DNA of 64,000 nt, from the NCBI GenBank assembly GCA_031431155.1, contig JANPCW010000204.1, positions 2,461-66,460 of the forward strand, read 5' to 3'. This DNA comes from Janthinobacterium sp. (GTDB taxonomy: Bacteria; Pseudomonadota; Gammaproteobacteria; Burkholderiales; Burkholderiaceae_D). The translations under genes and the position numbers were made by a program. Numbering within the stretch: the stretch's first letter is position 1; each line of letters opens with the position of its first letter. This document shows positions 4,098-32,494 of this stretch, piece by piece. The notes below the pieces were generated by a model, which worked only from the letters and a program-made list of their open reading frames with translations, was not told the origin of the DNA and ran no database searches.

Positions 4098-4127
4098 GGT
4101 GTTGCCTTGGTGGATGCCATAAACCGG

Positions 4128-4156: not shown

Positions 4157-4182
4157 GGCCCATCGTGCCATCAATGTTTTGC

Positions 4183-4211
4183 TTGACACCGGAAAATAAT
4201 GCGCGTATTCT
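4183..4211 (+). promoter_or_regulatory. candidate sigma70-type promoter (rightward)
   Basis: TTGACA (4183-4188), a 17-nt spacer and TATTCT (4206-4211). The ATG at 4219 lies about where transcription would start. Confidence 0.4.
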
Positions 4212-4218
4212 CGCGCCC

Positions 4219-4694: not shown

Positions 4695-4710
4695 CTACCA
4701 AGGAAATCTC

Positions 4711-16270: not shown

Positions 16271-16281
16271 GGCTTTCGCTC

Positions 16282-16560
16282 CTATCGTTGGACAATTCGT
16301 AGAGTCACCGACCGATCTTCCACCCTGGGGGTCGCGCCGGTGGTCGTAATCCGGCACGTTATGGTTTCGTTTGTCCCGGCGGTTCCGCCAGAGACGTAAA
16401 TTGTTGCAGTGTCCGCCGTGTTGGCTACCGCCACCTGGGTCAAGCCTGACGAAAGAACCCACGCCACCGAGGCGATGGAAACCCCAAGCGGGGTCAGCCA
16501 ATCCTGCCAGTCGAAGACATAGTCAAGCGTCGCGTTCGGGTCTTTCTTGAAGGTGGGCAT
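16282..16560 (-). CDS. hypothetical small virion protein
   Basis: Start at MPTFKKDPNATLDYVFDWQDWL. The protein looks like a beta-rich, Ig-like domain. Confidence 0.6.
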   Translation of the reverse strand: MPTFKKDPNATLDYVFDWQDWLTPLGVSIASVAWVLSSGLTQVAVANTADTATIYVSGGTAGTNETITCRITTTGATPRVEDRSVTLRIVQR

Positions 16561-16632: not shown

Positions 16633-16785
16633 ATGGAACTCCTGGCCCTATTGTGGTTGGCCTGTCTCGTCTGGGTGTTTGCCGCTCCCAGTGAGGGGCA
16701 TCGCCAACAGATGCTTCTGGCGTCTTGGGGGGTGTTGCTAATTCCCGTCATATTCGGTCTGCTCAAGCTGCTTTTCGGTCGGTGA
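16633..16785 (+). CDS. candidate 50-aa two-transmembrane peptide, antisense to the late operon
   Basis: Hand translation gives MELLALLWLACLVWVFAAPSEGHRQQMLLASWGVLLIPVIFGLLKLLFGR. It lies in the 200-bp gap after the giant gene and overlaps that gene's last codons. Only a poorly spaced GAGG precedes the ATG. Confidence 0.3.
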   Translation: MELLALLWLACLVWVFAAPSEGHRQQMLLASWGVLLIPVIFGLLKLLFGR

Positions 16786-19700
16786 CGGACCGCACCGCTT
16801 CATTGAATCGCCGCTGCTTGTTGGCGATCTGCTGCTCGATGAGCTTGACCGATTCCTTGCTGGCGTCCTTTGCCATCAGTTCGCGCTTGCGCTTGCGCAG
16901 TTGGCTCACGTCTCGCTCAACGGCATTGGCCATCATCACCAAGCGCGCTTCTGGGTTCTCTGTAAGGTACTCCGCAGTTGGCTCTCCTGCTTTCCTTCTG
17001 CCCTTCAATTCGGCCTCGTGCTCGTTGATGGCTTTCAGGTTGTTGTAGAAGGCGTTGGATTGGGATGATTGCTGCTCGGCGTCGCCGTAGAACCGACCCA
17101 ACAGAGGCACCTTGTACGTCGGCAAGTCTTCTCCGGTAAACGCGCTGGCAACGGTTTGTTCGGCCTTCATGGCTTCTCGTCCAACTCCGCCAGTCAACTG
17201 CCCGATCAGGTAGTCGATCTGGTCGGGCGTGGGGCTGAACAGGCCGGGCTTGTAGTGCGAGCCGCCGCTGATGTAGTTCAGCGCCTGAGAAACCATCTTG
17301 CTCGCACTGCTGGCCGTGTCCTTGGCCCTGGTGAATCCTGGCGTCGGGTTGAGCTTGTTGAAGTCCTCGCGGGCGATGGGCCTCCCAGTCCAGTCCTTGT
17401 TCTCGGACAAAGCCGCCAGCGGGTCGAGCACAGTCGGCGTGACGGTTTGAATCGACAACCCGGCATTGCCCGTGGGATTGAAGGCGTCGGCCACCATGCT
17501 TACCAGTTGGCCGATTCGCTTCGCCGGATTCCTGAACCCCGACAGGGTGAACTCGGCCGCGATCCGCCCGACCCCTGGAATGACATGCAAACCAAGAGGC
17601 ATCGGGACGGTTAGGTATTCCTTTCCGCCGATGGGCAGGATCAGGTTGCGCTCGCGCACAAAGTCAGGGGGTTCTTCGTCATCGAACCCGGCGGCGGCCA
17701 AGGCCAGGGCTTGCATCACGCCAAGCAAGGCCCCTCCAGCGATGATCTTTTTGCCCGCAGGCCCCTTGAGTGTTTTGGCAAGCCTGGCAGTTCCCTGGAC
17801 TGAGGCGTTGAAGAAGGCGTACAGAGCGCCGGCTTGAAGCCCAATCTCGCCCTTGCGATTGAAGTTCACCGTCAGGTTCTTAGCCATCGAGGCGGCACGC
17901 TGCTTGGTCATGCCCTGCTCTTTGCCGACCTTGTACGCCGCAAGTCTGACCGCGTTTTCCATCGCGGCGTTGTAGTCGCTCAACCAGTCGAACACGGCTC
18001 TGCCAAACCGGATGAACTTGCCCTCGCTGGCCTTTTTGAACTCGCGCTGAATCTCCTCGGCGCGCTCCTGACTGGTGCGAAACAAATCCCGAAATCCAGT
18101 CTGCCCGCCCTCGTTCTGAAATTCCTCCCACTCCTGCGCCCACGCCGAGACTGCTGAATTTCCAGCGCGCACGTCTCGCGCGTCAATGTAGATGCCCCGA
18201 AGCGCCGACAGCGTGTAACTCAACACCGCTGCTTGCTTGCCAGCAATCGGCGTGGTTGTCAGGTTCAACATCGCGCCCTGCAAGTCGCGCACCAGATTGA
18301 CAACGCCAAACACCGGGTTGTACTGGGTATTGATCGAGGCAAAGTACCGCGTCGCCTTGGCCGTTGTCCCAAGCACTTCACCCAACTGCGCGCCGTCCAG
18401 ATTCTTCAAGGTGCGGGCCATTCTCAAGGCCCTCGGGTCGCGCTCGTTGAACTCGACGCCACGCTGAACGATTCGCCCAGTGCCGTCAGGCGCCCTGAAC
18501 ATGATGACGTTTTCTTTTCCTTGGTAGGACATATCGAGCACGTCCACTGGGCTGCCGGTTTCCGTGCTGATGGCCGTCGTCACGCCGGGTTTGGCGATCT
18601 TCCAGAAATCCGAGTTCGGGTTCATCTTTGCAAGACCGTAGAGCGCCATGCCCACGCGGTTCTTTTCTCCGCGCACAACGGCCTTTTCCCGCTGTATGGC
18701 GATGTTGGCTAAGATGTTCACCACAGCCCGCTTGGAGCCCTTTCTTCGGCGCGTCTCAGGCCCGCGAATGGAGAAGCCCTGCCCGATGCCGGGGCCGTTC
18801 TCCATGCTCTCACGATGCAGCGGGACGTAGTGCTGGAATGCTTGCTCCATGCCGGCCACGTCATCCCTTGAAGTCAGGCCATAGTCAACCCAGGTCTGAC
18901 GGGTCTTGGCGGTGATGGCATCCACCCGAACAGCCAACGATTCATAGGCGCGCTTCGTGGCCGGGTCCAGGTTGGACAGGTAGTCAGCAGCCTCCTGCGT
19001 CTCCATGCCGGAGCCGTCGGTCACGGTCGGGTCGCGCGTCTCGATGGCGTCATTGGCTTCCTCGGCGTGCCTTGCATGCAGGTAGGCTTCAAAGTCATCC
19101 ATCTTCACGCCGCGCGTCGTCACATCTTCGATCAGTGGCCGGAGTTCCTTGTCGATGAAATCGTGCGTTCCCTTGGCCGCCCTACCGTAGTAAAGCTCCT
19201 CCTGGAGGTACACATCCAAAGCGTCCGCGATGGCCTGCCCCTGCGCAACAACGGCTTCCAAAACGCGCTTGCCGTCGATCATCTTATCCTGTAGGAAATA
19301 GATGAGGTTGTCCAGCTTGGATGGTTCTGGCGCAACCCAGGTGCCGTTTGCGCCGCCTGTCAGGCCAAGCGGCGTCTGACCGGCGGCCGGGGTGTACTGC
19401 CGATTGGTCTGGCCGGCGATCACGGCGCGGCTGTAGCGCACGCCGCTCCGCGCGTTGTCCACGATCCGCTCAAGTCTGTCCAGGCGCGCGCGCTGCATGT
19501 TTTTGCTGAACAGCGGCAGGCCCCACCGGACGTTCTCGCGCATCTTGTCGGTGATGGTGAAGCCGGGCTGCTGTCCTGGCGGCGCAATCCCGAGACGATC
19601 CCCACGGTCACGCGATTCTTTCAGCGCCACCGCTTTATCTGAATGTCCTGCGCCAGACGCCTGCCCGCTTGCGTCCTCAACATACCAAAGCCCATCAGCG

Positions 19701-22700
19701 TGGCGCTCAACACTGAACTGCATGTCTGTGTCTGCAAACGCAACGTCAGCCACCGCCCCACCCCCCAATTTCGCCAGCAGTTTGTTCACCGCTATCGGCA
19801 CAATCTTGTCGTAGAAGTCGAGCATGCCTTCGCCGCCGACTTTGAGGTCGAGGCCAGAATACTCGCCGCCGCCATCAGCAATGATCCGCGCGGCCAAGTC
19901 CTTACCGACCGTAGCCTCAAGCTCTGACTCTTTTACGTCTGTGTCGATGACGGTATCGCCATCCTTCTCTGCAAGGATGGCGTAACTACCTCCTTGTTTG
20001 CGGGCGACGAGCGTGTCAACCTGATTTATCAAAGCAAACATATCCGCAGCCTGATCGCCCGTGATGAACACCACGCCGTCATGGCCCTCTTGTGCTGCTG
20101 CGACCATGATGCGTTTGAGGGCCAGGGTGAGCCACTTGTCGGTGTGGGTGACGAATGGGGCGGCGGGCGGTCGGCGGGCGGTCTTGTTTCCGGCGTCATG
20201 TTCGCGCCGCTCCTTCTGGAGCCAGTCGCCCCGCAGGGCGGTCAATCGTTGCGCCGCCTGCTCCGGGGTCTGGTTGATGCGATCCGTCAACCGAGTGCGC
20301 TTACCATCTTCAAAGGTGGTCTGGAGCATGTCGTCAGGACCAAGTGGTCGCTCTTTCATGTCGGCGCGCATTTCGTTTCGCCCATCAAGCCACTCTTGCC
20401 CAGCAGCGCCTTCTCGCGCCAGCAGTTCGCGCACCGTTAGATTCTCGGCTGTGATTTTTGGCACCTTGCCGGTGAATGGCGTGGCAAACCCGACGGGCTT
20501 GCCGCCCGAGCCTTTCTTTTTGCTTGCCGCTTGCCAGTCGCTCTGCAACTCGATCACGCGCACATAGCTCTTGCCATCGTCCCCGATCACTACATCGCGG
20601 CGGACATGGGCAAGCACGTTGCGCTCGGCCCAGTGGCCGCCTTTGAATTTGTTTTCTGTCGTCGGCGCCGCCAGCGTCATCAATTCTTCTTTGTATTCGA
20701 TGCCGCCTGGGAGCCGCCATTTGGAAAATTTTGTTCTGTCAGGAACCAGGGTCATTGTTTCAACGGGCCGGCCTTCGGCGTCTGTGCTTGTCGTGCGGTT
20801 TTTTTCTCCGCCCTGCTCCAGCGTCACCACCTTAACCTGTACCCCATTGGCGTCCAGGTACTCGGCCACCTGTTCCTTGGTGATCCGGCCTTCCTGGAGC
20901 CCAAGCCATTCCTCGATGCCGCTCCAGGTCACTTCATCCTGCTTGATCTTTCCCTTGTTGATTAGGCTCTTGATCGCGCCCATCCAGCCCATGGCCGGCA
21001 GAGCTTTGGCTTCCAGGGTTGCAATTTCACGGGACAGGGCAGAGAAGAAGGTTGGGGCGCGCGTGCTGGCGCGCACCCTGCTGCCGCCACCTGGGGCCGC
21101 TGGGCCGCCGCCCTCAACGAACGCCCGAGCCGGGAGCAGGTAGTCGCGGATGATTTCAGCGTCACTCAGGCCCATCGACAGGCCTGGGATGTTCTCGCGC
21201 AGCCACGTCCTGATGGCGGCCACGGCGCGGCGCACCCAGCCCAGCGTGGGTTCGTTCTGCGCCATGTAGGCAAGCAATTCCTCGGCGGCCTCGCGCCGGC
21301 CGTCCAGGGTGTCGTAGTCGATCTTCAGGCGCGCAGCAGCAGCCTTGACCTTGGCCCCGTTCATGGCGATCAGTCCGTCCAGCACCGCATTGAGCCCGGC
21401 GCCGAACACGCCGCGCAGGCCGAAGTGCCCGAGGGTTTCGTGCATCACCACACGGCGCACGGCGCGGGCGTCTGGCAACCTGTCGGCAACCAGATAGACC
21501 GTGCCGTTATCGAACAACCCCTCAACCGACCCGCCCGAGTCAGAGGCCATGGCTCCGCCGCGCAAGTTGGCAGGCAACTCGCTTGCGGTGGAAACCACGA
21601 CGATCTTGGGGCCGTTCTTCCACTTGGACTTGATCTGCGCCGCGACCATGGACGCCATGCCGACGTTGGGCGTGTTGGTCCGGCCTGCCTTGCGACTGGC
21701 TGCTGGCGGGTTGGAGCCGTCGTTCCTGGCCGCCGGGCCGTCGTCCTTCTTGTTCGGGTCTTTCAACTCGACCAGCGGCTTTGTCTCGAAAATGCGATCC
21801 AGCACCTTCCAGCCGTCGGGGCCGACGGGGACGAACAGGCGCTCCGCCCATGCGATGCGCTCCTTGATGACGCCGTATGACACCAGTTCGCGCTGCGACG
21901 CCTCGTAGATCGTCCGGCCATTGCCGCCGATTTCGATGCGCAGTTCGTCCGACACCTTGGCGCGCGCCAGCTTCCAGCCGTTCGCCAGTTCGGCAACTTC
22001 GCCACGGAGAATCCGGCGCATCACTTCGGAAGTCTCGATCTTTGGCGCTGAGATATTCAGGCGCTTCTTGATGTCGTCAACGTCCTTCGGGTGGATGATC
22101 TTGCCCAGCAGGCGTCGTCCGTCCACGGTGTTCGTGCGCGCGACTTGAATGGTGCCGTCCGTTTCCAAGCGGTCCCAGATCGGCAGCATCGCGCCCACGA
22201 TCATGTGCAGCTTCTCGGTGAAAGTCGGCGGACGGGCCTGGGTTTCCTTGTCCCAAAGCGCTTCGGCTTCCTCTGGTGTGGCGGCGCGGTACTTGCCGTT
22301 CTTCACCCAGCGCCCACCGGAGATTTCCTCAAATTCCTCGCGCACTTTGATCGTGGTGCCGCCGGTCCCCAGCATGCGATAACGGTCGCTGATGCTGCCG
22401 TTCTTGTTCGTGATGGTGCCGCTCTTGACCTTGGCCCAGATACGACCGCTCTTGACGTTCACCACCCACTCAATGGGGGCGCCCTGCGTCTTTTCGCTCG
22501 GAAGGCTATAGAACCTATTGGGCTGCGTGACTTCCAACTCGACATAGGTGGTTTCGGCGCCGGTCCTTGGGTCGGTGTGGATTACTTCCTCTTGCGTCAC
22601 CTTGGTTTCGATGGCCTTGATGGTCTGCATCCCGGTGTCGAGTTCTCCACGGGAGCGCGCGACCTCCACCTTTTCCTCGATGCGAGACATGAAAGCGGCG

Positions 22701-25700
22701 AACACCAATTCCTGCATTTCCAAGCCCATCGACAGCAGGCGGTTCAAAAATTGCCGCGTCGGCGGGTACTTGGACTCGGCAATGTTTCCGGTGTTCGGAT
22801 CAACAATGTCTTCCAGGCCCATCTGTTCGAGGAAGTCCACAAACGACACCCCAACCACCTGCCCGCGCTTGATGTCGTCCACCAGTTGGCGGGTGGCCTG
22901 GGTCGCGTACTTGGACTCTAGGTTGTCGGACTCGTTGAACAGGCCGCCGCTGGACGTGTCACGTTGGCCCTTGGTCAAGGCTCCAAGTTGATCCAATCGA
23001 CGCGCGATAGCCGAAAGAAACCGCTTGTGGGCGGGTATGTCGGTTGATGCCAGCTTGTAGTGCGGCTCCGATGCTTGGTTGGTCCGGTGCGACCGGCCCA
23101 TACCCTGGACCGCCTTGTTGGCCCTCCATCCAGGCTGGATCAGGTAGTGCTGGCGCTTGCGCTGGTTTTTCTGCGTGCGGTCGGCGTGGAAGGAGTAGCC
23201 CGTCCCGCCGGCATCGGAGTACACGATGATGCGTTTCTTGTCCGCCATGAAGGCTTCCGCGTCGGCCTTGGCAGCAGAGGCGCCGCGCTGCTCAATCTGA
23301 GCCTTGATGTCGCCGTTCTTGTCTGGCTTGCGCACAACGCGCTGCTTGCGGCCGGTAACTTCGGCCGTGATGTCCGGCCCAAAGTGGTTCAAGATGATTT
23401 CAAGCGGGCCGTCAGGAACACGGATTTCGCGCAAGTCTTTAAGCAACTGCTCGCGCATCTTCACGGCTTCCTTGTTCAGCATCGGCGTGCCATCGGCGTT
23501 CATAACCGGCACGGATATTCTGTTGCCTTCTGGGTCCACGTCATCCTCGTACTGAATGACGGGGAAGGCCTTGGCAACCATTTCCAGCAGTTGATCGCGC
23601 GGCGTCAGGTCCAAGTCCTCCAGGTCGTCAGACTCGTCATCCTCTGCGCGCTTCGCAAGCGCCCGCTCCTGCTGGGCTTCGTTGGTGTTGACCAGTTGCA
23701 GAAGCACCGCGTCGCCTGCTTTCAGGTCTTGCTCGACGGCATCAATGATCGTCGGCATCTGCATGCTGGTGATGATCTGGTTGAAGAACCGTTGCTGGGC
23801 TCCCCAGTAGGCCGACTTCATGTTGGCCTTGGCGCGGTTCGGTTTCTTCTCTCCGTTCGGCCCTGCGGCGTCGGTCGTTGACATAGCCTCGTTCATCCGG
23901 CGAAGCGTGAGTTGCCACGCCTCCGCCAGTTTGTTGTAGATGTCACGCTGGAGAGGGGTCAACTTATGCTCAACCTCGGCGCGCGAGTAGGTCACGCCGT
24001 CGAAGGACAGGCTGCGGGCGATGTATGCGCCCATCTGCTTCATGTCGCGGGCAACAAGCTCCATGGTCGCAAGGCCGCCGGCCACCATCTTCTCGACAAA
24101 GCTATGGACGCTTGGGAACGGCGTGCCCATTCCCCACAACCCAAGGCGGGTCGCAAAGGACAGGTTGGACACTTCCGTCGCGCCGGTCGCAGACACATAG
24201 ACCACGCGGGCCTTGGGCAGTTGCTTTTGAAGCTCCACCACCGCCATAGCCTGGGCGGACGGCTGTGAAGCTCCGCGCTCGCCCTTGATGGCGATGGCGT
24301 TGCCGGCGTTGTGCGCTTCATCGAAGGCGATCACGCCATCGAAGTCTTTGCCGAGCCAATTGACAAGCTGGTCAAGCCTGGATTGTCCTTTGGCGACAAC
24401 GCTCATCCCGTGGATGGCGGCGCCTGTCCTCTGCGATTTAGCCGCGCTGCGCAGCGTCGAATAGGTTGTGAAAATGATGCCGTTTTTCGCGTCGATCTTG
24501 CCTTCGGCGCCGGTCTTGTTCTGATTGAAGATGATCGACTCGTCGCCACCGACTCCTTTGAAGTCGCGCTTTGCGTCGTTCATCAGGCCTTGCTTCTCAG
24601 AAACCCAAACGTGCTTCTTGCGGCCTTGGCGCAGGTTGTCCAGGAGGATGCCGCCGATCATTCTCCCTTTGCCGGTGTTGTGAGTGACGATCAGATCGTC
24701 GGTCAGGTACAGGTGCTGGTCATGCGCAACTGAAATGCACTGGCACTCGCGCTCGCCAATGGGCTCGACCGAGCGAAGGATTCGCTGCGGCGAGTATTTT
24801 TCCCAGGATGCGCGCACTCTGGTCGCCTTGCGCCCAAGCGAGAACGGGTTGACGCCGGACGGAAGTTTCACATAGACAACGTGGCAGTCCCTGTGCGTGG
24901 TTTTCTTAATGGAGCGCGTGGCCACGCCGCCCAGTGATCGGCACAGAAACACCACATCGTCGGCGAGTCGCGCAGAAATGGTGTAGTAAATCGCCGAGCC
25001 GTTGTGTTTGGCGGCATGCCCGTCGGTGTCCATCAGACCGCGCAGGATGGCCAGGCGTGTCTCGACTGAGTTGATCTTGTAGTCGTCGGGGATGAACTTA
25101 TCAGCGGCCCCCGCTCCGGCAAGTCCGAGGTTACGCAGGGCAACCAACAGCGGGTTCGATTGTCGGTCCATACCGGACCACTGGCGCCCGCCGGCTTTAA
25201 CGATGTCGTAGTGGTAATCGCGCGAAACAACCTTGCGAGCCATCAGACCGTGCGGCAGAGCAGCCTCCACCATTTCAACCATCTCTGGCTCGGCGCACAC
25301 CAGTTGCGCAGACGACTGCCGCAGGCATCCATCGCCAAGCAACACCCCCAGCAGCCACGGATTGATGCTCACCGGCTTCTTGGGAAATTGCACCGGAGCC
25401 ACCAAAGGAATGGAATGTAATTTACGAACATCGGTCGCCAGCATGTCGGTGGTCCTCAGCTTCGGAGGCCCGTATGTCACGCCCCTTCCTTGCTTCTGGA
25501 AACTGCGCTCCTGGCGCGTTTGCGTCAGCCACAGGTGCTCGCCGCTGGCCTCCGTGCTGGAGCCATCTGAGAACGTCAGCTTGTAAGTTGAAAGGACGCC
25601 CTGCGGGAATACGCCGGTCACTCGCGTTGGCGTTCCATCGACCGCGATTACCTCGTCGCCTTCGACCAAATCCCCCATGGTGCGCCAACCGGTGGGCGTG

Positions 25701-28700
25701 AGCACCTTGGCGGTCAACGGCTGCGGGCCGGTTCCATCGCCGATGAAGAATCCGCGCCGCGCCTCCACCAAATTGGAATCTCGCGGCAGCAGTTGCTCAT
25801 GGGCCTGCCCGGCATAGACCACGGCCTCAATCTGCGCCAGCGACAGCAGGCCGTCGGTGATGGTCTTTTTCGGCAGGTTCGGCGTGTAGGTTGGGGCCGG
25901 CGGCAGCACCGACGCCATGGCGGCGGATTGCACCAACGCGCCAGGATGCGGCTTGGCCCCTTCGACCTGCAAGCGCTGCGGCGTGTAGCCCTCGAAGATC
26001 GAGTCGGTCAGTTCCCCGGCCTGGGTCGTTTCCGATCCGACATTTACGCCGGTTGCGCCCCCGGCGGTATCAGGTCCACTACCAGCGTCAGGATCGCTCT
26101 GCCCGCCTCCTCCAGGCTTTTCGCTGTCTCGATTTCCGCGCTTTCCAGGTTGCGGTAAACGTCCTCCGGGTCGTCCCCCTCCACCTCCGCCACCGCCGCC
26201 TCCACGGCCTCCGCCCACACCGGGTCGGCCGCCAGGTTCTCCAGCGCCCACTCCAGCAGTTGGACCAGTATCAATCGGCCCGGCTGGACCGTCAGGTGTT
26301 GCTGCGTCATCAGGCGCATCACGTTCTGACTCAGCATCGTCGCGTTCAAGCTGGTCACGGTCGTTGGTTGCGCCTTTTGCATTTGGTCGGTCATTGCGGA
26401 CTCCTTCGAGTAGTGCGATCAGTTCTGTGTAGTCAGAAACTCCGGTTGTGATTGGCTTTGCCCCATCTTTCGGAGGGGCCACTTTGTCAATGACGATCAG
26501 GACGTTGTTGAACGTGGTTCCGTACTTGGCATATCCACTCCCGTCCACCGGGATCACCGCCCGAACGTGGTGCTTGGCGGCGATCCTTGCCCACCATTCA
26601 CGGAAGGCTGGCTTGCCCCACTCCATGCCCTCGCCAGAGATTGCGACAAGGCGCCCTCCATCCACCAGACTGCTGAGCCCTTGCTCAATGTGCTTGGCGC
26701 CGATGGCCGAGTTGTTTTTCAGATTGTTGGCGGCGGCCGAGAACGGTGGGTTCATCACCACCACTGTTGGCTGCGCGCTGTCGGGCAGGAAGTTGCTGAT
26801 GTGCTCGGCGTTTTCGTGATAGACCGTGGCGCCTGGGAACAGGTCTTGCAGCACAGCGGCGCGGCGGCTCGACAGTTCGTTCAAGATCAGCTTGGCGCCA
26901 GCGTTCTTGGCGAACACGGTCAGGCCACCAATGCCGGCCGATGGCTCCAGCATCGTGTCTGCGCTGGTGACGTTGGCGGCCCAGTTGGCGATGAACGCAA
27001 ACGGCGGCACCGTGCTGAACTGCTGGAACTTGTCCATTTCCTCCGTGCGCTTGGTCTGCGTCGGCAGCAGGGCGGTGATCTTCTTGAGCGACTCCACGGC
27101 CAGGATTGCGCTGGCTCGGTCGGTGTTCGGGTTGAACGTGATGCCATTGCGCATCAGGTGCAGGTTGACGCCCGCCTCCATGGCGTCGTAGGCGTCCTTC
27201 GGGGTGTACTTGCCCTCGGCCTGGGTGCCGCCGAAAGCCTCGTCCGCCTCCTCGAACAGCGCCCTCCAGTCGAACGCCAGCCCTTTCTCTAGGATGCCCT
27301 GCACGCGCTTGGCAAGCGTCATCGAGGCGCTTGACTTGGCTCCAAGCTGCGCCGTCAGGCCCTCGTCCTTTGCAAAGCGGATGGCGTATTCCTTGATGCC
27401 ATCACCGAACTGCTCGATCAGGAACTTGAACAACTCCTTGAGAGTCTTCCCGGCATCCTGGAACGCCTTGAGCGCTGCGGAAAAGTGGGGCTTGGCCTCT
27501 TTGTAGGCGTCCTCGTCAAAGCCGCCCGGAAACGAGTTCAACCGCCCCGGCTTGCTGCCGAACAGTTTGGCAAGCCCGGTGAGCGCTTCATTGATGCCGG
27601 TCACGCCAAGCTGCGCCGCCTGACCAATCAGGTTAGCAGCCGTCGGGTTCTCGCGCGCCAGCTTCTCAGGCGTCCACGCTCCCGAGTCGGCTTTGGGTGC
27701 TGGCTCCGGTGGTGCATCCGGGGTTTCCTGCTCCGATTCCGAAAGTTCGGCCGCCGCTTCGTCAAACAGGTTTTCCAGGTCGGTGTCGGTCAGGTCGCCG
27801 GATGGCTCTGCCGGCGCGTCCACTATCGGCGGCGCAAGTTCGGCCTCTTTTTCTTCCGCAAGGCGGTCCAGTTCCTCCTGCTCGGCCCTGGTCTTGGCTT
27901 CGGCTTCTTGGGCGCGTCGCGCAATTTCCTCTTGATAGAAAACTCGCATGTTCTCCGGGTCGGACAGGTCTTTCATGCGACGCTGGCCGTCCTGGATTTC
28001 TTCGGGAAGGTTCTTCTCGAAAGCCTCTCTGCTGACGGTCGGCTTCCCGTCCTTCCATGTGATGGACTTGAACAGAGTGGCGTACAGCTTGTTGAACAGC
28101 GCGCGCTCAGTGCCGGTGGGGTACGGGGTGCCTCGGAAGCCCTTGGCCTTTGTCACGTTGCCTTCGCCCACCCAGGCCGCGTTGACAAGGTAGTCGCTCC
28201 TGAATCCCAGCGTGTCGGCCACCCACGCCTCGCCCGCCCTGGCGAACAACTCCTTGTCGTTGCCCCAGTATTTCTTGCCCAGAATGTCGGCATTTTGTTT
28301 ATAGGCCGTGGATTTGTCGGAGAACCCGCGCGTCATGGCGTAGGTGGCATGATTCACCTTGTCTTTCCTGTCGCCCAGGTGCGTCCAATAGGTTCCACCG
28401 AACAGGAAATCCATGGCGCGCTTTTCTACGGCATCGACCGTGGGCGCCTGTTGTTTCAGGTAGCGCAGGAACATGCCGCGAACGGTGGCCCAGTCGCCCC
28501 CCATCATGTCGTCTATGGCGTGGTGCCACTCATGCGCCAGCGTGCCGTCGCCCTTGGTGTTGGTGACGTTGATGGCCTTCACCGGGCCGTTGGGGCTTGG
28601 GTGGGCTGGGTGGAATGTCGCCGCAAACTTGCCGCGCCCCAGGGCGCCAATAAGGAAGTGCATCTTCCCGCCAAAGCCAATCCCACTCAACGATGCTCCG

Positions 28701-31700
28701 ACGTGGCTCGCCAGATCGACAAAAGCGTCGTGCGAATAGTTCAGGTGGTCCTGGTCCTCTTTGGCCTTGACATAGGTGCCGAAGCCGATGTCGGCAAACG
28801 AGAAGCGTGTTTTTACACCCTCCGGGGTAACGTCTTTGCCTTCTCGAAGTTCTGGTCCATCGCGCACAACGATGTCCAAGCGCGGCGGGATCATCTGCGC
28901 GTTGCGCGTCGGCAGGGCGATGGTTTTCTCGTTCTCGATCAGGTGTTTTGTCCACTCTGATTTGGAGCGAAGCTGCTGGAAGTCTCTGTCCACTGGCCGC
29001 CAGATTTTGCTGTTGACAACCGCCAAGCCCTTGTCGTTCAACAAGCTGCTGTAGAAGCGTTGTTCGGCGTCGTGCTCTTTTTCTTTTGCCGCATCGACGT
29101 AGCGTTCATCGAATTGCTCGGCGGCCTCTTTCACGGATGACTTGCCTTGCGCAAACTCGATCAGCGCACGAACCTTGCCGACGTACTCGGCGGCCACGTC
29201 CTGGAGCCACTTGATGCGATAGGCGGAGTCAGATTGGAACTTGTCGCGGTCCTCTGATGTCAGGTTGCCTGGATACCTGTCGCCCTCAAGCATGTAGTCG
29301 GTGTTGCTCTTGTCGCTATTCCTCCACGCGGAATTTCCCAGCCAAAAATACGACTTGTCCAGCCATTCCTTGAAGGTTTCGGTGTTGCCGCGAATGTGCT
29401 CAATGTAGAGCCGGAAGCCTGGGCTCACGCCATCCGGGAGCAATGGCTCGAACAGGCTGGCCCGCGCAGTGGCGCGCTCGATCTGCGCCCATGCTGTGGT
29501 CGCGTCGCTCTCGTCGGCTTTCATCTGGTCGCGCAACTGCTCGTACCAGCGGCGAAGATCGACCCCGGTGTTCTCCAGCTTGTTGACTGGCACCCCTTCG
29601 TACCACGCATTGCCTTCGGTGGTTTTCATCCAGCGGCGGCCGGCTTTGTACCCAAGCATGCGCGATGGCATTTCGCCGCCGTGCATCGTGCTCTTGGTCT
29701 TGCCTCTGAGCGCGTGGTCCCACCCAGACGTGAATGCCACTTGCTGCTCGGGCGTCAGCACCGGGTCGATGCCCTTCATGGCGTCGTCGATGGCGCCCTG
29801 GCGGACTTCGGGCTTGCGGTGTTTCTGTTTTTCCAATTCGGCCTGCTTCACCTTGATCTTCTGTTCTGCGACTTTGACGAGGCGCTGAATCTGGAACGGC
29901 GCCAGCTTCGTGTCGCCAAGCAACTCCGTGACGCGGGCGATCAGTTCCTCGCGCGACTTTCCAACCATGTCTGGGTCGTTCGCCAGCGCGTTGAAAACTT
30001 CCGACTGCTTGATGCGCTTGGCCTTGGGCGTGTTGTCCTCTGCGGCCGGTGGCTTGGGTGTCGGCGGCGCTGGCTGGGTCTTGCTTGGCTCTGCCTTTTT
30101 CGGCGACCGCACCTTTCCTTGGATCACTGGGTCAAGCTCGTCCCATGGCGTGTTTGAGAACTGGCGGATTTGGTCGCCATCAACATAACCGGCATCGCGC
30201 AGCATCTTGGCTCGCACTGGCACTGCGGCTGCATCCCATCCGTCTTTGGTGGCGTCTTTCCCGGCAGGCTCCTTGGGCGGCTTTTGCGGCTCCGCTATCG
30301 TTCCTCCGCCACCAGTTCCGGTTGGTGGCGGCGGAGTCCCCGGCTTTGTCCATGGCATCATTCCGGCCCCTGGCGGATCGTCCTCGGTCCCCGGCTCGGT
30401 TTTGTCTTTGGGTGGCATGGCGGCCCCGCCGGCCGACGTAGATTCGCCGCCAATGGTTCCGCCGCCTTGTGCAGGTGGTGCTACCGGGCCGCTGCCTGAG
30501 ACACCAGTTCCACCCGCCGTTCCTGCGCCTGGCGTTTGCGGTCCCGCGCCAGGAGCATTGCCGCCACCTGGATTTCCAAGTCCTCCGGTGGGGGTGGGTG
30601 CTTGTCCGGGTGGCTGTTGCGCTTGGCCTTGCTGGGCTTCTGTTTTTTTACCATGTGCATCGCCCTTCGTTGTCGGAATGATGTTTTTTGCGACCGATGA
30701 CGGGCCTACAATAGGCGTCGCGGGTGGCGTTGATGCGTCACCCGCGACTGGCACATCATTACTGGTTGGAGTAACAGCATGCTTACTGTCAAGTGTAGTT
30801 GGTGCGGCGCCGCCGTCACTAGGCACCCGTCCCTCATTCTGAGGGCGCCCAACGTCTTCTGCTGTCGTCGATGTTCTGGACTGCACAGGGCTTCTGCCAC
30901 GCCCATCGTCAACAAAACCAGCGGCGCCTTTTATCCCTGCGTTCGTTGTGGCAAGGCCGTCTATAGGCAAGTCTGCCGAATGAAGACCCTCAAGGAGGGC
31001 AGGGTGTTTTGCGGCCACGCTTGCTACCAAGCGCATGATCGAGGAGGAGGCATCAACTCCGATGGTTACCGCGTTATCACCGTCGCCCCGTACACCACCA
31101 AAATCGAGCATCGATGGATCATGGAACAGCATCTCGGGCGTGAGCTTTTGGCGACTGAGCACGTTCACCACATCAACAGGGATAAGCTTGATAACCGCCT
31201 TGAGAACCTCGTCGTTCTTTCCGATAGCGAGCATATGTCGCTTCACAGAAGACACCGCCTCACTATCGATGACATCAAACCCTTTGTTTCCTGTGGTCGT
31301 ACTTCCACCGAAATCGCTGTTGCCTTCGGGGTTGACCGATCCACCGTCACTCGCTTGCTTCACTCCAATGGACTGATTGCCAGTCGAATCAGTCGGCAAT
31401 AAAGCGGTCGGCAGCAGTCCTGCTGCGATCTTGGAAATCGGGCCGACAACGGGGATGCCATTCCCAACGGGCGGCATCGGGCCAAGCTGCGGCCCATTGT
31501 TGTATCCCATCGCGCCAGCCGAAAGCGGCGGGGCGGGCGGCGGGATGACGGTGTTGGTCGCTGCCGTGATGGGGCCTGAGGGCGGCGGGATGGCGGCGAA
31601 GCCACCACCGAGAACGGCCCCAGCCAGAGCGCCCTCGGTCACGGCGCGAGCCATGCCCTCGGTGATTGGTTTGCCTTCGGCCCAGTTCTTCGCCGCCGAT

Positions 31701-32494
31701 TCGATGGCAGATTGCGGGCCTTCCTCGAACAAAGCCTCGCTCACCATGCCGCTTGGCACCCGCTTGTAAATCGGCGGGGCAACGGCGCCTGCTGTACGCG
31801 CACCACCGGCAATCGCCACGTCTGGGTCCAGGAATCCGAAGCGTTGCGCGATGCGGCCGCCGCCATAGCCAACGACGCCGCCAAGCGCTCCGGCGCCAAG
31901 CGATGCGAGGGCGGCCCTTTGCGGGTCCACGGCCGGGTCGATTTCCTTCATGGACCCGCCGGCAATGATGGAGCCTTCGCCAATCGCCGCGCGGGCTGGG
32001 CCTGATGCTATTCCGCCAATGACCCCCAGGGCACGGCCAGCCAACCCACCCGCAAACATTGGCGCGATTGAGCGCGCCACGGTCATGGCGGTGGCGCGTG
32101 GATTGTCGATGTATGCACGCGCCACGTCCCAGGCTGTAGTGTTTGGGTCTTTCCAGGCTGTATCAACGGCTCCTTGCTGGGCCTGCGTCTCGGTAGAAAG
32201 TTGCGCGTTTGTTTCGTCTTCCCACTTGCCGGGCTGAAACCCGGTGGCCGTGCCAACCCGGTCGGCCAAGCGGCTGATTGGACGGTCGAACCCAGCAAGA
32301 CCAAGCGGTATGTCCGCCACGCCCGTCAGTAGTCCGGGGATGCTTTGCACACCCTGCTTGAGCCCAGCCCCCAGGTCTTGCGTCAGTGTGCGTCGCGGCG
32401 CAAGTGTTGCCGTATCTGAATCGACGGCGACGCCGCCAAATTCATCGGTCCCGCCATCTACAAGTTCACCGCCAAATTGGTCTTTTGCCATCAT
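16763..32494 (-). CDS. giant polyvalent virion/ejection protein (5,243 aa): N6-adenine DNA methyltransferase, Sbno/SNF2-type helicase, two HExxH metallopeptidase-like modules and a C-terminal membrane-associated module
   Basis: The ORF is uninterrupted and its ATG overlaps the upstream stop (ATGA at 32491-32494). Motifs are located in the sub-features below. The hydrophobic segment IIAGGALLGVMQALALAAAGF lies near 17690-17760. The gene sits where podoviruses encode internal or ejection proteins. Confidence 0.85.
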   Translation of the reverse strand: MMAKDQFGGELVDGGTDEFGGVAVDSDTATLAPRRTLTQDLGAGLKQGVQSIPGLLTGVADIPLGLAGFDRPISRLADRVGTATGFQPGKWEDETNAQLSTETQAQQGAVDTAWKDPNTTAWDVARAYIDNPRATAMTVARSIAPMFAGGLAGRALGVIGGIASGPARAAIGEGSIIAGGSMKEIDPAVDPQRAALASLGAGALGGVVGYGGGRIAQRFGFLDPDVAIAGGARTAGAVAPPIYKRVPSGMVSEALFEEGPQSAIESAAKNWAEGKPITEGMARAVTEGALAGAVLGGGFAAIPPPSGPITAATNTVIPPPAPPLSAGAMGYNNGPQLGPMPPVGNGIPVVGPISKIAAGLLPTALLPTDSTGNQSIGVKQASDGGSVNPEGNSDFGGSTTTGNKGFDVIDSEAVSSVKRHMLAIGKNDEVLKAVIKLIPVDVVNVLSRQKLTPEMLFHDPSMLDFGGVRGDGDNAVTIGVDASSSIMRLVASVAAKHPALLEGLHSADLPIDGLATTNAGIKGAAGFVDDGRGRSPVQSRTSTTAEDVGRPQNEGRVPSDGGAAPTTLDSKHAVTPTSNDVPVAGDASTPPATPIVGPSSVAKNIIPTTKGDAHGKKTEAQQGQAQQPPGQAPTPTGGLGNPGGGNAPGAGPQTPGAGTAGGTGVSGSGPVAPPAQGGGTIGGESTSAGGAAMPPKDKTEPGTEDDPPGAGMMPWTKPGTPPPPTGTGGGGTIAEPQKPPKEPAGKDATKDGWDAAAVPVRAKMLRDAGYVDGDQIRQFSNTPWDELDPVIQGKVRSPKKAEPSKTQPAPPTPKPPAAEDNTPKAKRIKQSEVFNALANDPDMVGKSREELIARVTELLGDTKLAPFQIQRLVKVAEQKIKVKQAELEKQKHRKPEVRQGAIDDAMKGIDPVLTPEQQVAFTSGWDHALRGKTKSTMHGGEMPSRMLGYKAGRRWMKTTEGNAWYEGVPVNKLENTGVDLRRWYEQLRDQMKADESDATTAWAQIERATARASLFEPLLPDGVSPGFRLYIEHIRGNTETFKEWLDKSYFWLGNSAWRNSDKSNTDYMLEGDRYPGNLTSEDRDKFQSDSAYRIKWLQDVAAEYVGKVRALIEFAQGKSSVKEAAEQFDERYVDAAKEKEHDAEQRFYSSLLNDKGLAVVNSKIWRPVDRDFQQLRSKSEWTKHLIENEKTIALPTRNAQMIPPRLDIVVRDGPELREGKDVTPEGVKTRFSFADIGFGTYVKAKEDQDHLNYSHDAFVDLASHVGASLSGIGFGGKMHFLIGALGRGKFAATFHPAHPSPNGPVKAINVTNTKGDGTLAHEWHHAIDDMMGGDWATVRGMFLRYLKQQAPTVDAVEKRAMDFLFGGTYWTHLGDRKDKVNHATYAMTRGFSDKSTAYKQNADILGKKYWGNDKELFARAGEAWVADTLGFRSDYLVNAAWVGEGNVTKAKGFRGTPYPTGTERALFNKLYATLFKSITWKDGKPTVSREAFEKNLPEEIQDGQRRMKDLSDPENMRVFYQEEIARRAQEAEAKTRAEQEELDRLAEEKEAELAPPIVDAPAEPSGDLTDTDLENLFDEAAAELSESEQETPDAPPEPAPKADSGAWTPEKLARENPTAANLIGQAAQLGVTGINEALTGLAKLFGSKPGRLNSFPGGFDEDAYKEAKPHFSAALKAFQDAGKTLKELFKFLIEQFGDGIKEYAIRFAKDEGLTAQLGAKSSASMTLAKRVQGILEKGLAFDWRALFEEADEAFGGTQAEGKYTPKDAYDAMEAGVNLHLMRNGITFNPNTDRASAILAVESLKKITALLPTQTKRTEEMDKFQQFSTVPPFAFIANWAANVTSADTMLEPSAGIGGLTVFAKNAGAKLILNELSSRRAAVLQDLFPGATVYHENAEHISNFLPDSAQPTVVVMNPPFSAAANNLKNNSAIGAKHIEQGLSSLVDGGRLVAISGEGMEWGKPAFREWWARIAAKHHVRAVIPVDGSGYAKYGTTFNNVLIVIDKVAPPKDGAKPITTGVSDYTELIALLEGVRNDRPNAKGATNDRDQLERDDAESERDAPDDAATPDGPAGPIDTGPTAGVGAGEPGGRPGVGGGRGGGGGGGGGGRPGGRLPQPGKRGNRDSEKPGGGGQSDPDAGSGPDTAGGATGVNVGSETTQAGELTDSIFEGYTPQRLQVEGAKPHPGALVQSAAMASVLPPAPTYTPNLPKKTITDGLLSLAQIEAVVYAGQAHEQLLPRDSNLVEARRGFFIGDGTGPQPLTAKVLTPTGWRTMGDLVEGDEVIAVDGTPTRVTGVFPQGVLSTYKLTFSDGSSTEASGEHLWLTQTRQERSFQKQGRGVTYGPPKLRTTDMLATDVRKLHSIPLVAPVQFPKKPVSINPWLLGVLLGDGCLRQSSAQLVCAEPEMVEMVEAALPHGLMARKVVSRDYHYDIVKAGGRQWSGMDRQSNPLLVALRNLGLAGAGAADKFIPDDYKINSVETRLAILRGLMDTDGHAAKHNGSAIYYTISARLADDVVFLCRSLGGVATRSIKKTTHRDCHVVYVKLPSGVNPFSLGRKATRVRASWEKYSPQRILRSVEPIGERECQCISVAHDQHLYLTDDLIVTHNTGKGRMIGGILLDNLRQGRKKHVWVSEKQGLMNDAKRDFKGVGGDESIIFNQNKTGAEGKIDAKNGIIFTTYSTLRSAAKSQRTGAAIHGMSVVAKGQSRLDQLVNWLGKDFDGVIAFDEAHNAGNAIAIKGERGASQPSAQAMAVVELQKQLPKARVVYVSATGATEVSNLSFATRLGLWGMGTPFPSVHSFVEKMVAGGLATMELVARDMKQMGAYIARSLSFDGVTYSRAEVEHKLTPLQRDIYNKLAEAWQLTLRRMNEAMSTTDAAGPNGEKKPNRAKANMKSAYWGAQQRFFNQIITSMQMPTIIDAVEQDLKAGDAVLLQLVNTNEAQQERALAKRAEDDESDDLEDLDLTPRDQLLEMVAKAFPVIQYEDDVDPEGNRISVPVMNADGTPMLNKEAVKMREQLLKDLREIRVPDGPLEIILNHFGPDITAEVTGRKQRVVRKPDKNGDIKAQIEQRGASAAKADAEAFMADKKRIIVYSDAGGTGYSFHADRTQKNQRKRQHYLIQPGWRANKAVQGMGRSHRTNQASEPHYKLASTDIPAHKRFLSAIARRLDQLGALTKGQRDTSSGGLFNESDNLESKYATQATRQLVDDIKRGQVVGVSFVDFLEQMGLEDIVDPNTGNIAESKYPPTRQFLNRLLSMGLEMQELVFAAFMSRIEEKVEVARSRGELDTGMQTIKAIETKVTQEEVIHTDPRTGAETTYVELEVTQPNRFYSLPSEKTQGAPIEWVVNVKSGRIWAKVKSGTITNKNGSISDRYRMLGTGGTTIKVREEFEEISGGRWVKNGKYRAATPEEAEALWDKETQARPPTFTEKLHMIVGAMLPIWDRLETDGTIQVARTNTVDGRRLLGKIIHPKDVDDIKKRLNISAPKIETSEVMRRILRGEVAELANGWKLARAKVSDELRIEIGGNGRTIYEASQRELVSYGVIKERIAWAERLFVPVGPDGWKVLDRIFETKPLVELKDPNKKDDGPAARNDGSNPPAASRKAGRTNTPNVGMASMVAAQIKSKWKNGPKIVVVSTASELPANLRGGAMASDSGGSVEGLFDNGTVYLVADRLPDARAVRRVVMHETLGHFGLRGVFGAGLNAVLDGLIAMNGAKVKAAAARLKIDYDTLDGRREAAEELLAYMAQNEPTLGWVRRAVAAIRTWLRENIPGLSMGLSDAEIIRDYLLPARAFVEGGGPAAPGGGSRVRASTRAPTFFSALSREIATLEAKALPAMGWMGAIKSLINKGKIKQDEVTWSGIEEWLGLQEGRITKEQVAEYLDANGVQVKVVTLEQGGEKNRTTSTDAEGRPVETMTLVPDRTKFSKWRLPGGIEYKEELMTLAAPTTENKFKGGHWAERNVLAHVRRDVVIGDDGKSYVRVIELQSDWQAASKKKGSGGKPVGFATPFTGKVPKITAENLTVRELLAREGAAGQEWLDGRNEMRADMKERPLGPDDMLQTTFEDGKRTRLTDRINQTPEQAAQRLTALRGDWLQKERREHDAGNKTARRPPAAPFVTHTDKWLTLALKRIMVAAAQEGHDGVVFITGDQAADMFALINQVDTLVARKQGGSYAILAEKDGDTVIDTDVKESELEATVGKDLAARIIADGGGEYSGLDLKVGGEGMLDFYDKIVPIAVNKLLAKLGGGAVADVAFADTDMQFSVERHADGLWYVEDASGQASGAGHSDKAVALKESRDRGDRLGIAPPGQQPGFTITDKMRENVRWGLPLFSKNMQRARLDRLERIVDNARSGVRYSRAVIAGQTNRQYTPAAGQTPLGLTGGANGTWVAPEPSKLDNLIYFLQDKMIDGKRVLEAVVAQGQAIADALDVYLQEELYYGRAAKGTHDFIDKELRPLIEDVTTRGVKMDDFEAYLHARHAEEANDAIETRDPTVTDGSGMETQEAADYLSNLDPATKRAYESLAVRVDAITAKTRQTWVDYGLTSRDDVAGMEQAFQHYVPLHRESMENGPGIGQGFSIRGPETRRRKGSKRAVVNILANIAIQREKAVVRGEKNRVGMALYGLAKMNPNSDFWKIAKPGVTTAISTETGSPVDVLDMSYQGKENVIMFRAPDGTGRIVQRGVEFNERDPRALRMARTLKNLDGAQLGEVLGTTAKATRYFASINTQYNPVFGVVNLVRDLQGAMLNLTTTPIAGKQAAVLSYTLSALRGIYIDARDVRAGNSAVSAWAQEWEEFQNEGGQTGFRDLFRTSQERAEEIQREFKKASEGKFIRFGRAVFDWLSDYNAAMENAVRLAAYKVGKEQGMTKQRAASMAKNLTVNFNRKGEIGLQAGALYAFFNASVQGTARLAKTLKGPAGKKIIAGGALLGVMQALALAAAGFDDEEPPDFVRERNLILPIGGKEYLTVPMPLGLHVIPGVGRIAAEFTLSGFRNPAKRIGQLVSMVADAFNPTGNAGLSIQTVTPTVLDPLAALSENKDWTGRPIAREDFNKLNPTPGFTRAKDTASSASKMVSQALNYISGGSHYKPGLFSPTPDQIDYLIGQLTGGVGREAMKAEQTVASAFTGEDLPTYKVPLLGRFYGDAEQQSSQSNAFYNNLKAINEHEAELKGRRKAGEPTAEYLTENPEARLVMMANAVERDVSQLRKRKRELMAKDASKESVKLIEQQIANKQRRFNEAVRSVTDRKAA
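21425..21442 (-). other. HExxH motif 2 (HETLGH, aa 3685-3690) of the giant protein
   Basis: The context VRRVVMHETLGHFGLRGVFG resembles a SprT/ArdC-type metallopeptidase. Confidence 0.55.
23050..25860 (-). other. Strawberry-notch/SNF2-like superfamily-2 helicase domain of the giant protein (interrupted by an intein)
   Basis: The P-loop GFFIGDGTG|TGKGR is split at 24677-25726. DEAH lies at 24311-24322. C-terminal helicase motifs are YSDAGGTGYSFHAD and QGMGRSHRTNQ (about 23080-23250). Confidence 0.75.
24677..25726 (-). mobile_element. intein (350 aa) with a LAGLIDADG homing endonuclease, inserted in the helicase P-loop
   Basis: It spans P2257 to N2606. It ends in VTHN followed by a +1 Thr. LAGLIDADG motifs are LLGVLLGDGCL and LRGLMDTDGH. 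Block B is GEHLW and block F is ECQCISV. Removing it restores GDGTGTGKGR. Confidence 0.8.
26480..27040 (-). other. N6-adenine DNA methyltransferase domain of the giant protein
   Basis: Motif I is LEPSAGIGGL (about 26924-26947). Motif IV is NPPF (26741-26752, aa 1915-1918). Confidence 0.75.
28520..28534 (-). other. HExxH motif 1 (HEWHH, aa 1321-1325) of the giant protein
   Basis: The context GDGTLAHEWHHAIDDMMGG resembles the zincin-like modules of large polyvalent proteins. Confidence 0.5.
30779..31402 (+). CDS. HNH homing endonuclease (207 aa) encoded antisense within the giant ORF
   Basis: A GGAG at 30768-30771 lies 7 nt before the ATG. The N-terminus has two Cys4-type zinc-finger pairs. 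The HNH_3 core is GYRVITV...EHRWIMEQHLGRELLATEHVHHINRDKLDNRLENLVVLSDSEHMSLH. The C-terminal HTH is TSTEIAVAFGVDRSTVTRLL. Confidence 0.85.
   Translation: MLTVKCSWCGAAVTRHPSLILRAPNVFCCRRCSGLHRASATPIVNKTSGAFYPCVRCGKAVYRQVCRMKTLKEGRVFCGHACYQAHDRGGGINSDGYRVITVAPYTTKIEHRWIMEQHLGRELLATEHVHHINRDKLDNRLENLVVLSDSEHMSLHRRHRLTIDDIKPFVSCGRTSTEIAVAFGVDRSTVTRLLHSNGLIASRISRQ

Follow-up and report, generated by a model that had tools for sequence, protein, structure and literature searches.

A 5,243-codon phage open reading frame encodes a polyvalent protein with conserved ends, exchangeable cargo and a predicted class 3 intein

Phage-type polyvalent proteins (Iyer et al., 2017; PMC5512222) are already known as a kind, and include virion-borne giants in Bcep22-like and Stx phages. 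Gp47 of the Stx phage phi24B (2,811 amino acids, aa) carries LPD5, LPD1 and LPD38; mass spectrometry found it in virions in abundance, it is invisible in symmetric reconstructions, and it has been proposed to be an ejection protein (bioRxiv 10.64898/2026.04.10.717836). In Burkholderia phages, 'DarB-like' proteins are represented by gp75 of Bcep22 and gp69 of JC1 (4,515 aa), and 51 unique peptides of the latter were obtained from purified virions (PMC9144972). DarB of phage P1 is an adenine methylase fused to a superfamily 2 (SF2) helicase, a virion-borne anti-restriction protein presumed to be delivered along with the DNA (PMC5512222). The virion RNA polymerase (vRNAP) of phage N4, gp50, is a packaged and injected giant in which the end regions have been assigned to injection and encapsidation and the enzyme lies in the middle (PMC5512222).

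In this study, we analyzed 64,000 nucleotides of DNA from Janthinobacterium sp. (GCA_031431155.1, contig JANPCW010000204.1, positions 2,461 to 66,460; this whole stretch is hereafter called the window), 24.6% of which is occupied by one open reading frame (ORF), the giant ORF. Its closest studied kin are phi24B gp47, JC1 gp69 and Bcep22 gp75. As in LPD38 polyvalent proteins, a giant multi-domain ORF with an LPD38-containing C-terminus ends a podovirus structural module, and peptidase-like and methylase-helicase cargo are combined; the studied relatives of this type are virion-associated. What is distinct here is the size (larger than the characterized phi24B gp47 and JC1 gp69), a plasmid-type methylase-helicase of the Strawberry-notch (Sbno) type, a class 3 intein at an unusual register, the presence of both end modules and two recurrent domains that have no Pfam model. 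The N-terminal module is rare and sets the protein apart from the phi24B, JC1 and Bcep22 examples. Strawberry-notch helicases have been reported in polyvalent proteins in 'a few instances' only, and the word 'intein' does not occur in that account (PMC5512222). With P1 DarB the protein shares the fusion of an adenine methylase to a helicase, but the helicase is of a different family, and its gene context differs from that of darB, which adjoins the portal gene. Unlike N4 gp50, it has no polymerase domain.

The translation of the giant ORF contains one stop only, at its end, and the other two frames of the same strand contain 167 and 137 stops; by base composition, 5,243 stop-free codons would be expected by chance with a probability of about 1e-73. 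The GC content is high at third codon positions (GC3, 0.58-0.82) and low at second positions (GC2) along the whole ORF, intein included. An initial annotation, made from the DNA letters and their translation, had described a single uninterrupted frame coupled to the gene upstream. The single frame is borne out by its sole terminal stop and uniform coding signal, and the start does overlap the stop of the upstream ORF (32491..34407) as ATGA. The label of that 638-aa upstream ORF as an internal-virion gene was not supported, since no PHROG or Pfam family matched it. While the frame is uninterrupted, the mature product is predicted not to be: a class 3 intein of 350 residues, overlooked at first, splits the helicase P-loop at the point where a bar alone had been put between GDGTG and TGKGR. 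The predicted masses are 565.5 kDa for the precursor, 527.1 kDa after predicted splicing and 38.4 kDa for the intein.

All of the motifs listed in the initial annotation are where it had placed them: LEPSAGIGGL (aa 1849-1858) and NPPF (26741-26752) in the methylase; GDGTG (aa 2252-2256), TGKGR (aa 2607-2611), DEAH (24311-24322) and QGMGRSHRTNQ (aa 3130-3140) in the helicase; HEWHH (28520-28534); and the glycine-run stretch GGGRGGGGGGGGGGR (26171-26215). HETLGH is correctly positioned (21425-21442), but it is an HExxxH rather than an HExxH motif. A megablast search with the whole giant ORF against 50,697 phage records gave no match. Homologue searches with the protein, which were run piecewise and not at full length, now place about 79% of it in recurrent modules, so that the earlier estimate of more than half without a recognizable motif was too pessimistic; the orphan remainder comprises approximately aa 341-884 plus linkers. 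One chain carries several unrelated catalytic and LPD domains (LPD1, LPD38, AAA_34, Helicase_C_4, a methylase and two zincin-like modules), and by its predicted domain content it is a phage-type polyvalent protein, as had been suggested.

We regard it as fairly probable that this protein would be made late in infection, packed in a podovirus-like capsid and expelled together with the DNA. The giant proteins of Stx phages share with it both the C-terminal module, here called the chassis, and the HEWHH/LPD1 module. By homology to the relatives found in virions, phi24B gp47 and JC1 gp69, the packaged and injected multi-enzyme device proposed earlier stands as the best reading.

The chassis (878 aa) is the most conserved part of the giant protein. 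By sequence similarity it is a member of the LPD38 or 'PLxRFG' family of C-terminal modules of about 870 aa (LPD38 1.5e-44, 152.8 bits against a cut-off of 27; phrog_14770 1e-224). It contains the motifs TVNFNRKG, FFNASVQG and PLLGRFYG, as well as the hydrophobic segment noted in the initial annotation, which is a helix at aa 4917-4935 (Kyte-Doolittle 2.0). The chassis matched 351 phage records, among them Stx-converting, Vibrio, Ralstonia (31 records) and Burkholderia (10 records) phages; the same 351 include Bacillus phage Dartukuta, with an ORF of 4,203 aa, and 'Methanosarcina virus MetMV', with one of 3,002 aa. It occurs in at least 499 protein clusters, and the 120 listed are 50-68% identical to it over 85-100% of the 878 aa; the few clusters named after an organism are mostly from Betaproteobacteria. 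More than 547 IMG/VR loci carry it, of which the best 80 were surveyed. In every homologue mapped, the chassis forms the C-terminus. In those 80 loci, the ORFs that end in it have a median length of 2,568 aa (53 complete cases), and at least nine exceed 4,170 aa and are still open at the edge of the fetched flank. The cargo upstream varies among relatives and includes ART-PolyVal, ddrB-ParB, LPD37, PBECR, InPase and MuF_C domains. In an AlphaFold 2 (AF2) model, the chassis is largely helical and confidently predicted (predicted local distance difference test, pLDDT, 83.3; predicted template modeling score, pTM, 0.83). A Foldseek search against the Protein Data Bank (PDB) gave no fold match (best E 0.26), and 71 viral models in BFVD matched (E <=0.001; template modeling score up to 0.90), all of them uncharacterized.

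In a prophage of Nitrosovibrio tenuis (GCA_900109785.1; locus L006, 4808-12895), cargo and chassis are found as four adjacent ORFs encoding PBECR1 (926 aa), LPD37 (578 aa), ART-PolyVal (235 aa) and the LPD38 chassis (964 aa), the first three overlapping end to end. Either frameshifts have divided a polyvalent gene here, or the set is a naturally unfused form of one.

The N-terminal module had only eight homologues in the database (P0156-P0161, P0028 and P0035), far fewer than the chassis. All eight carry it at the N-terminus of large proteins with other cargo, and in three viral loci (L014, L061 and L084) it occupies one end and the chassis the other end of the same giant ORF. Across relatives, conserved end modules enclose a swappable cargo. 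A part of the module (aa 114-315) weakly matched the PHROG vRNAP family (1.2e-4). Homology to the N4 gp50 injection domain was considered and rejected, as an hhalign comparison with gp50 residues 1-998 gave a probability of 0.6%. The adjoining stretch (aa 341-884) had no homologues save for a short match to one protein (P0258). In a related SU10-type phage contig of 63 kb (JGI 3300033121; L004, 10001-24035), the N-terminal-module protein is encoded by a separate gene: it is 1,344 aa long, has InPase cargo, and its start overlaps the stop of the gene upstream; a helicase giant of 4,245 aa is encoded three genes downstream.

Our guess, from conservation, position and the hydrophobic helix, is that the two end modules have roles in packaging and ejection. 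A broader version of this idea, which we put forward tentatively, is that the N-terminal module and the chassis could be a general delivery carrier of SU10-, 933W- and GP4-like podoviruses, with the inserted enzymes being injected and the chassis being a new fold that builds or gates a conduit through the envelope. It is also conceivable, though in our view rather doubtful, that the whole protein is mainly a structural ejection protein, in which the chassis, perhaps with the N-terminal module, would form a DNA conduit across the envelope and the enzymes would be accessory or vestigial. The chassis is indeed by far the best conserved part beside a variable cargo, its helix is strongly hydrophobic, it stands alone as a gene in the Nitrosovibrio prophage, and exactly such a role has been proposed for gp47 by the authors of the phi24B study. 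Against vestigial enzymes, methylase, helicase and both peptidase modules have kept every catalytic motif, and the GC3 of the cargo region matches that of the chassis. Structural and enzymatic roles are, moreover, not mutually exclusive.

Zincin-like peptidases of polyvalent proteins have been described in two variants, one with HExxH and an Asp three residues on, the other with HExxxH (PMC5512222). Both are matched here. In module 1, the sequence HEWHHAIDD is an HExxH motif with an Asp three residues past the second His. This module aligned to the NCBIfam model CLCA_X (2e-19) over positions 2-245 of 250, with a score under the naming cut-off of the model, and contains Pfam LPD1 (5.8e-12). It is approximately 30% identical to giant proteins of about 190 Stx-phage records and 41% identical to the metagenomic giant P0210, which also matches the residues N-terminal to it (aa 885-1081). 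Module 2 was found in 17 chassis loci, where the motif HExLGHxGLR...AAEE recurs in a domain without a Pfam model. Among 16 homologues, H3685, E3686, H3690, G3692, E3739 and R3766 are invariant, and in the AF2 model the core (per-block pLDDT mostly 80-96) has the topology helix, three strands, helices. A profile of module 2 retrieved nothing from PDB sequences, its members gave nothing meaningful in Pfam, and in a Foldseek search of aa 3580-4365 against the PDB the best E was 0.25, with ArdC (6sna) at E 5.6. With the PDB and Pfam searches empty, the zincin call for module 2 rests on the motif and the predicted topology. Judged by their motifs, both modules are likely to be zincin-like peptidases.

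Two further regions had no Pfam match. Stretches homologous to the region following module 2 (aa 3811-4365) occur in 15 chassis loci as well as in P0212, P0218, P0206, P0013, P0025 and P0027; the domain marked by E.QSDW and GGEGM..FYD, at approximately aa 3950-4340, is present in those 15 loci. Its AF2 model was unreliable (pLDDT <50). The small helical domain at aa 1566-1712 is 37-52% identical to segments of P0210, P0235 and L077, and precedes the methylase in several other giants.

The methylase region (aa 1713-2030) has the motifs I and IV of an N6-adenine DNA methyltransferase and is predicted to be one, while its matches at the family level are weak (Pfam MTS 0.045; PHROG methyltransferase 8.7e-7; NCBIfam Erm37 2.5e-9). 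The helicase is, by AAA_34 (1.7e-106, 356 bits), GDGxGxGKGR, DEAH and Helicase_C_4 (3.8e-80, 270 bits), of the Strawberry-notch SWI2/SNF2 type. Its two exteins are 43-47% (N-extein) and 39-40% (C-extein, over about 970 aa) identical to six stand-alone methylase-Sbno proteins (P0029-P0034). With the intein removed, the unit is colinear at 40-50% identity with stand-alone plasmid proteins of about 1,400-1,500 aa, which cover about 90% of aa 1713-3579 and are annotated as 'strawberry notch-like NTP hydrolase / bifunctional methyltransferase' or 'bifunctional SAM methyltransferase/DEAD-box'. The matches come from 674 plasmid records, examples being plasmids of Methylomonas and Methylotuvimicrobium. 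In 408 records 80% or more of the query is covered, and a conjugative plasmid is predicted in 350 of the 674. On plasmids the proteins are encoded by separate genes, most without an intein, whereas here the unit is embedded in a giant. No function for them was found in the literature searched. The unit was present in none of the 50,697 phage records, where a 2,100-aa query gave intein matches only. In the 80 chassis loci, a weak methylase match was seen in three, and a full Sbno helicase or the intein of the giant in none; a scan of IMG/VR for close relatives with aa 2913-4000 found nothing.

P1 DarB, cited for comparison in the initial annotation, proved to be an architectural analogue only. 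BLASTP gave a best E of 0.09 (0.13 for the methylase core) and phmmer nothing at E <=10. Because no significant similarity to DarB was detected, 'DarB-like' describes the logic of the protein and not its ancestry.

The plasmid kinship bears on whether the protein enters the virion at all. It might instead act late in the infected cell, for example by methylating progeny DNA, and lie in the structural operon for timing only. We consider this improbable: the nearest kin of the methylase-helicase unit are indeed stand-alone plasmid proteins without a virion link, and detection in virions is confined to relatives, but the chassis and the HEWHH/LPD1 module are common to the proteins that were found in virions, and the gene, with structural genes around it, overlaps the stop of its upstream neighbor.

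The class 3 intein of the DnaB protein of mycobacteriophage Bethlehem (MP-Be) serves as the reference (Tori et al., 2010; PMC2807308). By comparison with it, aa 2257-2606 of the giant protein are a class 3 intein for which splicing is predicted. When both halves of the giant were compared with PDB sequences by phmmer, the intein alone matched (intein chains 6rix, 6bs8 and 6riz, 3e-9 to 1e-7, and PI-SceI); Pfam LAGLIDADG_3 (4.3e-7) and intein-containing PHROG and NCBIfam families also matched. The boundaries were set by intein-less homologues together with an alignment of related inteins, position 1 being Pro and not Cys, Ser or Thr. Six stand-alone methylase-Sbno proteins (P0029-P0034) align with aa 1713-2030, with 2148-2256 and then, unbroken, with 2608-3579. 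The P-loop reads GDGTGAGKGRQ in intein-less homologues and GDGTG/PQPL...VTHN/TGKGRM here (slashes mark the junctions). Excision of the 350 residues restores GDGTGTGKGR, which fits the GDGxGxGKGR consensus exactly; before removal the consensus is absent. The key residues are Pro1 (Pro2257), Ser61-x-x-His64-x-Trp66 (block B), Cys330 (block F:4) with a His at +8 and an aromatic residue at +10, Thr348-His349-Asn350 and Thr+1; in the numbering of the ORF, the class 3 triplet corresponds to W2322, C2586 and T2604-H2605-N2606, followed by T2607. Both LAGLIDADG motifs retain their acidic residues. The MP-Be DnaB intein shares Pro1, the block B Ser-x-x-His-x-Trp, the block F Cys, Thr-His-Asn and Thr+1, as well as insertion into the P-loop of a helicase-type ATPase, and the numbering is nearly equal (S61/H64/W66/C330/T348/N350 here, S62/H65/W67/C320/T339/N341 in MP-Be DnaB; PMC2807308). 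The present intein differs in its host, a Strawberry-notch helicase that is part of a polyvalent protein, and in its register, G/TGKGR.

This register is unusual also among the relatives of the intein, of which 19,701 were found in 1.84 billion representative proteins. The closest (50-54% identity) are in giants of 5,360 and 6,167 aa, in P0169 (1,667 aa), in P0174, which is a fragment, and in P0170, a methylase-Sbno protein of 1,110 aa. Those for which the upstream flank is present are Sbno/SNF2 helicases with the insertion after GKGR (GKGR/T), five residues downstream of the site used here. The 150 closest host proteins contain 153 intein copies, which are placed after GxGK in 101 cases and after GKGR in 10; the G/TGK register was seen in one other case, the unrelated ATPase P0176. 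Relatives that start with Pro are consistently preceded by Gly. The register may have arisen by ectopic homing.

The giant ORF is not unique in carrying both an intein and the chassis: by sequence, related versions of the two are combined in the metagenomic giants P0175 (5,360 aa), P0165 (6,167 aa) and P0212 (7,310 aa), with a methylase and a helicase visible in P0165 and P0175 as well. Related inteins are likewise carried by P0233 (6,551 aa) and P0210 (6,035 aa), in addition to P0212 and P0165, both of which end in the LPD38 chassis; in P0212, inspection by eye suggests another intein-like insert immediately behind DEAH. An assembly chimera, or a decaying fusion in which the intein no longer splices and the helicase is dead, is very improbable: the intein does lie five residues off the site of its closest relatives and the equivalent region is broken into four ORFs in one prophage, yet 15.7 kb are free of stops with a uniform coding signal, all class 3 splicing residues and both LAGLIDADG motifs are present, excision restores exactly the P-loop consensus of intein-less homologues, and giants of 5,360, 6,167 and 7,310 aa exist in metagenomes.

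For the packaged polyvalent protein, we infer packaging, ejection, proteolytic processing, methylation-based anti-restriction and a timing of splicing along the following lines. The precursor would be synthesized late in infection. Excision of the intein, via the block F cysteine, would be needed to rebuild GDGTGTGKGR and would yield the spliced protein and a free LAGLIDADG endonuclease; the protein, spliced before or after, would be packed in the head and would leave it with the DNA. The end modules (aa 27-340 and the chassis) would act as carrier for the interchangeable cargo between them. In the host, the Sbno translocase would move the methylase along the incoming DNA, which would be methylated ahead of host restriction enzymes, and the peptidase modules would either divide the chain into functional parts or attack host proteins. 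The methylase-helicase dyad model and the peptidase roles follow those discussed for polyvalent proteins by Iyer et al. (PMC5512222). As a further possibility, the cysteine-dependent class 3 intein may be a switch that keeps the helicase off until the host cytoplasm is reached.

Several points weigh against this scheme. Presence in virions is known from relatives. For the methylase-helicase unit, the nearest matches are proteins that stand alone on plasmids, and its detectable kinship to DarB stops at the methylase superfamily. By hhalign, the N-terminal module showed no similarity to the injection domain of N4 gp50, and Foldseek found no solved structural relative of the chassis in the PDB. 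Both zincin assignments lack a significant structural or PDB match, and the CLCA_X score of module 1 is below the curated cut-off. Finally, passage of a 527-kDa chain through a narrow tail channel requires unfolding or prior cleavage.

The window is phage DNA whose genes form a podovirus-type set, and the late genes share the strand of the giant ORF in the order small terminase, large terminase, SU10-type portal, capsid, F116-type head-closure protein, structural proteins, giant ORF and Mtd_N tail protein (Table 1). The position between tail-type structural genes and a receptor-binding-type gene, as claimed in the initial annotation, was thus seen. The large terminase bears an intein of its own, inserted at the P-loop and with the Trp, Cys, Thr triplet present; it is paralogous to that of the giant (31% identity, E 2e-36), and at the DNA level the similarity of the two is confined to the two LAGLIDADG motifs. 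Downstream of the giant ORF, the gap of 261 nt has neither a promoter-like nor a terminator-like site, and the window contains no tRNA genes.

Table 1. Features of the giant ORF and of the surrounding phage genes (nucleotide positions in the window; residues of the respective protein).
Feature	Position	Strand	Residues	Characteristics
Giant ORF	16763..32494	-		ATG start, 5,243 codons + stop, 15.7 kb
N-terminal module, Gly/Ala-rich	31475..32416	-	27-340	phrog_30335 1.5e-31
Low-complexity/orphan stretch, Pro/Gly/Ala-rich	29843..31474	-	341-884	Composition
Likely zincin-like peptidase module 1	28010..29230	-	1089-1495	HEWHHAIDD, ends in Pfam LPD1
Small helical domain	27359..27799	-	1566-1712	LFG...FDxxxYxxAKPxF, directly before methylase
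Predicted N6-adenine methyltransferase	26405..27358	-	1713-2030	Motif I LEPSAGIGG, motif IV NPPF
Gly/Pro/acidic linker	26054..26404	-	2031-2147	Holds ten-glycine run
Strawberry-notch helicase, N-extein	25727..26053	-	2148-2256	Pfam AAA_34 positions 1-65, ends GDGTG
Predicted class 3 intein with LAGLIDADG homing endonuclease	24677..25726	-	2257-2606	350 aa
Strawberry-notch helicase, C-extein	21758..24676	-	2607-3579	TGKGR, DEAH, QGMGRSHRTNQ, Sbno C-terminal region
Likely zincin-like peptidase module 2	21065..21745	-	3584-3810	HETLGH (HExxxH), downstream AAEE
Recurrent unnamed region	19400..21064	-	3811-4365	Motifs E.QSDW and GGEGM..FYD
C-terminal chassis	16766..19399	-	4366-5243	878 aa; Pfam LPD38 within, aa 4940-5132 only
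Upstream ORF, Ala/Pro/Gln-rich	32491..34407	-		638 aa; stop overlaps giant-ORF start
Small terminase	55844-56641	-
Large terminase, intein-bearing	52703-55414	-		903 aa
Predicted large-terminase intein, class 3, with LAGLIDADG endonuclease	about 54062-55060	-	119-451	AREHYK/MLRTD...TTHN/STIITF
SU10-type portal	48731-50920	-
F116-type head-closure protein	41284-42540	-
Tail protein with Mtd_N	13625-14845	-		Mtd_N 2.9e-17

Some other genes of the window deserve mention. Mtd_N is the N-terminal domain of the major tropism determinant of Bordetella phage BPP-1; a diversity-generating retroelement, considered on account of this domain, was rejected, as the window yielded no pair of template and variable repeats (a reverse transcriptase was not searched for). 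A 679-aa ORF at 9098-11137 (minus strand) consists mostly of a degenerate 63-nt (21-aa) tandem unit in at least 12 copies (60-75% identity); it has a fibre-like look and matched no PHROG family. In the head-gene block, an unusual location for a methyltransferase, a 531-aa ORF (43205-44800, minus strand) has a class I S-adenosylmethionine (SAM) methyltransferase domain (Methyltransf_11, 6.3e-11). The domain of unknown function phrog_8123 occurs twice on the minus strand, as a 168-aa protein (40762-41268) and as the C-terminal part of a 352-aa protein encoded directly downstream of the giant ORF (15443-16501).

The two recurrent domains without a Pfam model are candidates for domain libraries. 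The intein is a built-in test, since a junction peptide in virions would show both packaging and prior splicing. The chassis is a good structural target for understanding how podoviruses eject very large proteins, because it is common in viral metagenomes, confidently predicted and without a solved relative. As a quarter of the 64-kb window is given over to one protein, that protein presumably pays for itself during infection. It displays the build plan of such proteins, with constant ends and exchangeable cargo, and in this case the cargo is seen to move between plasmids and phages as a complete unit of 1,500 residues.

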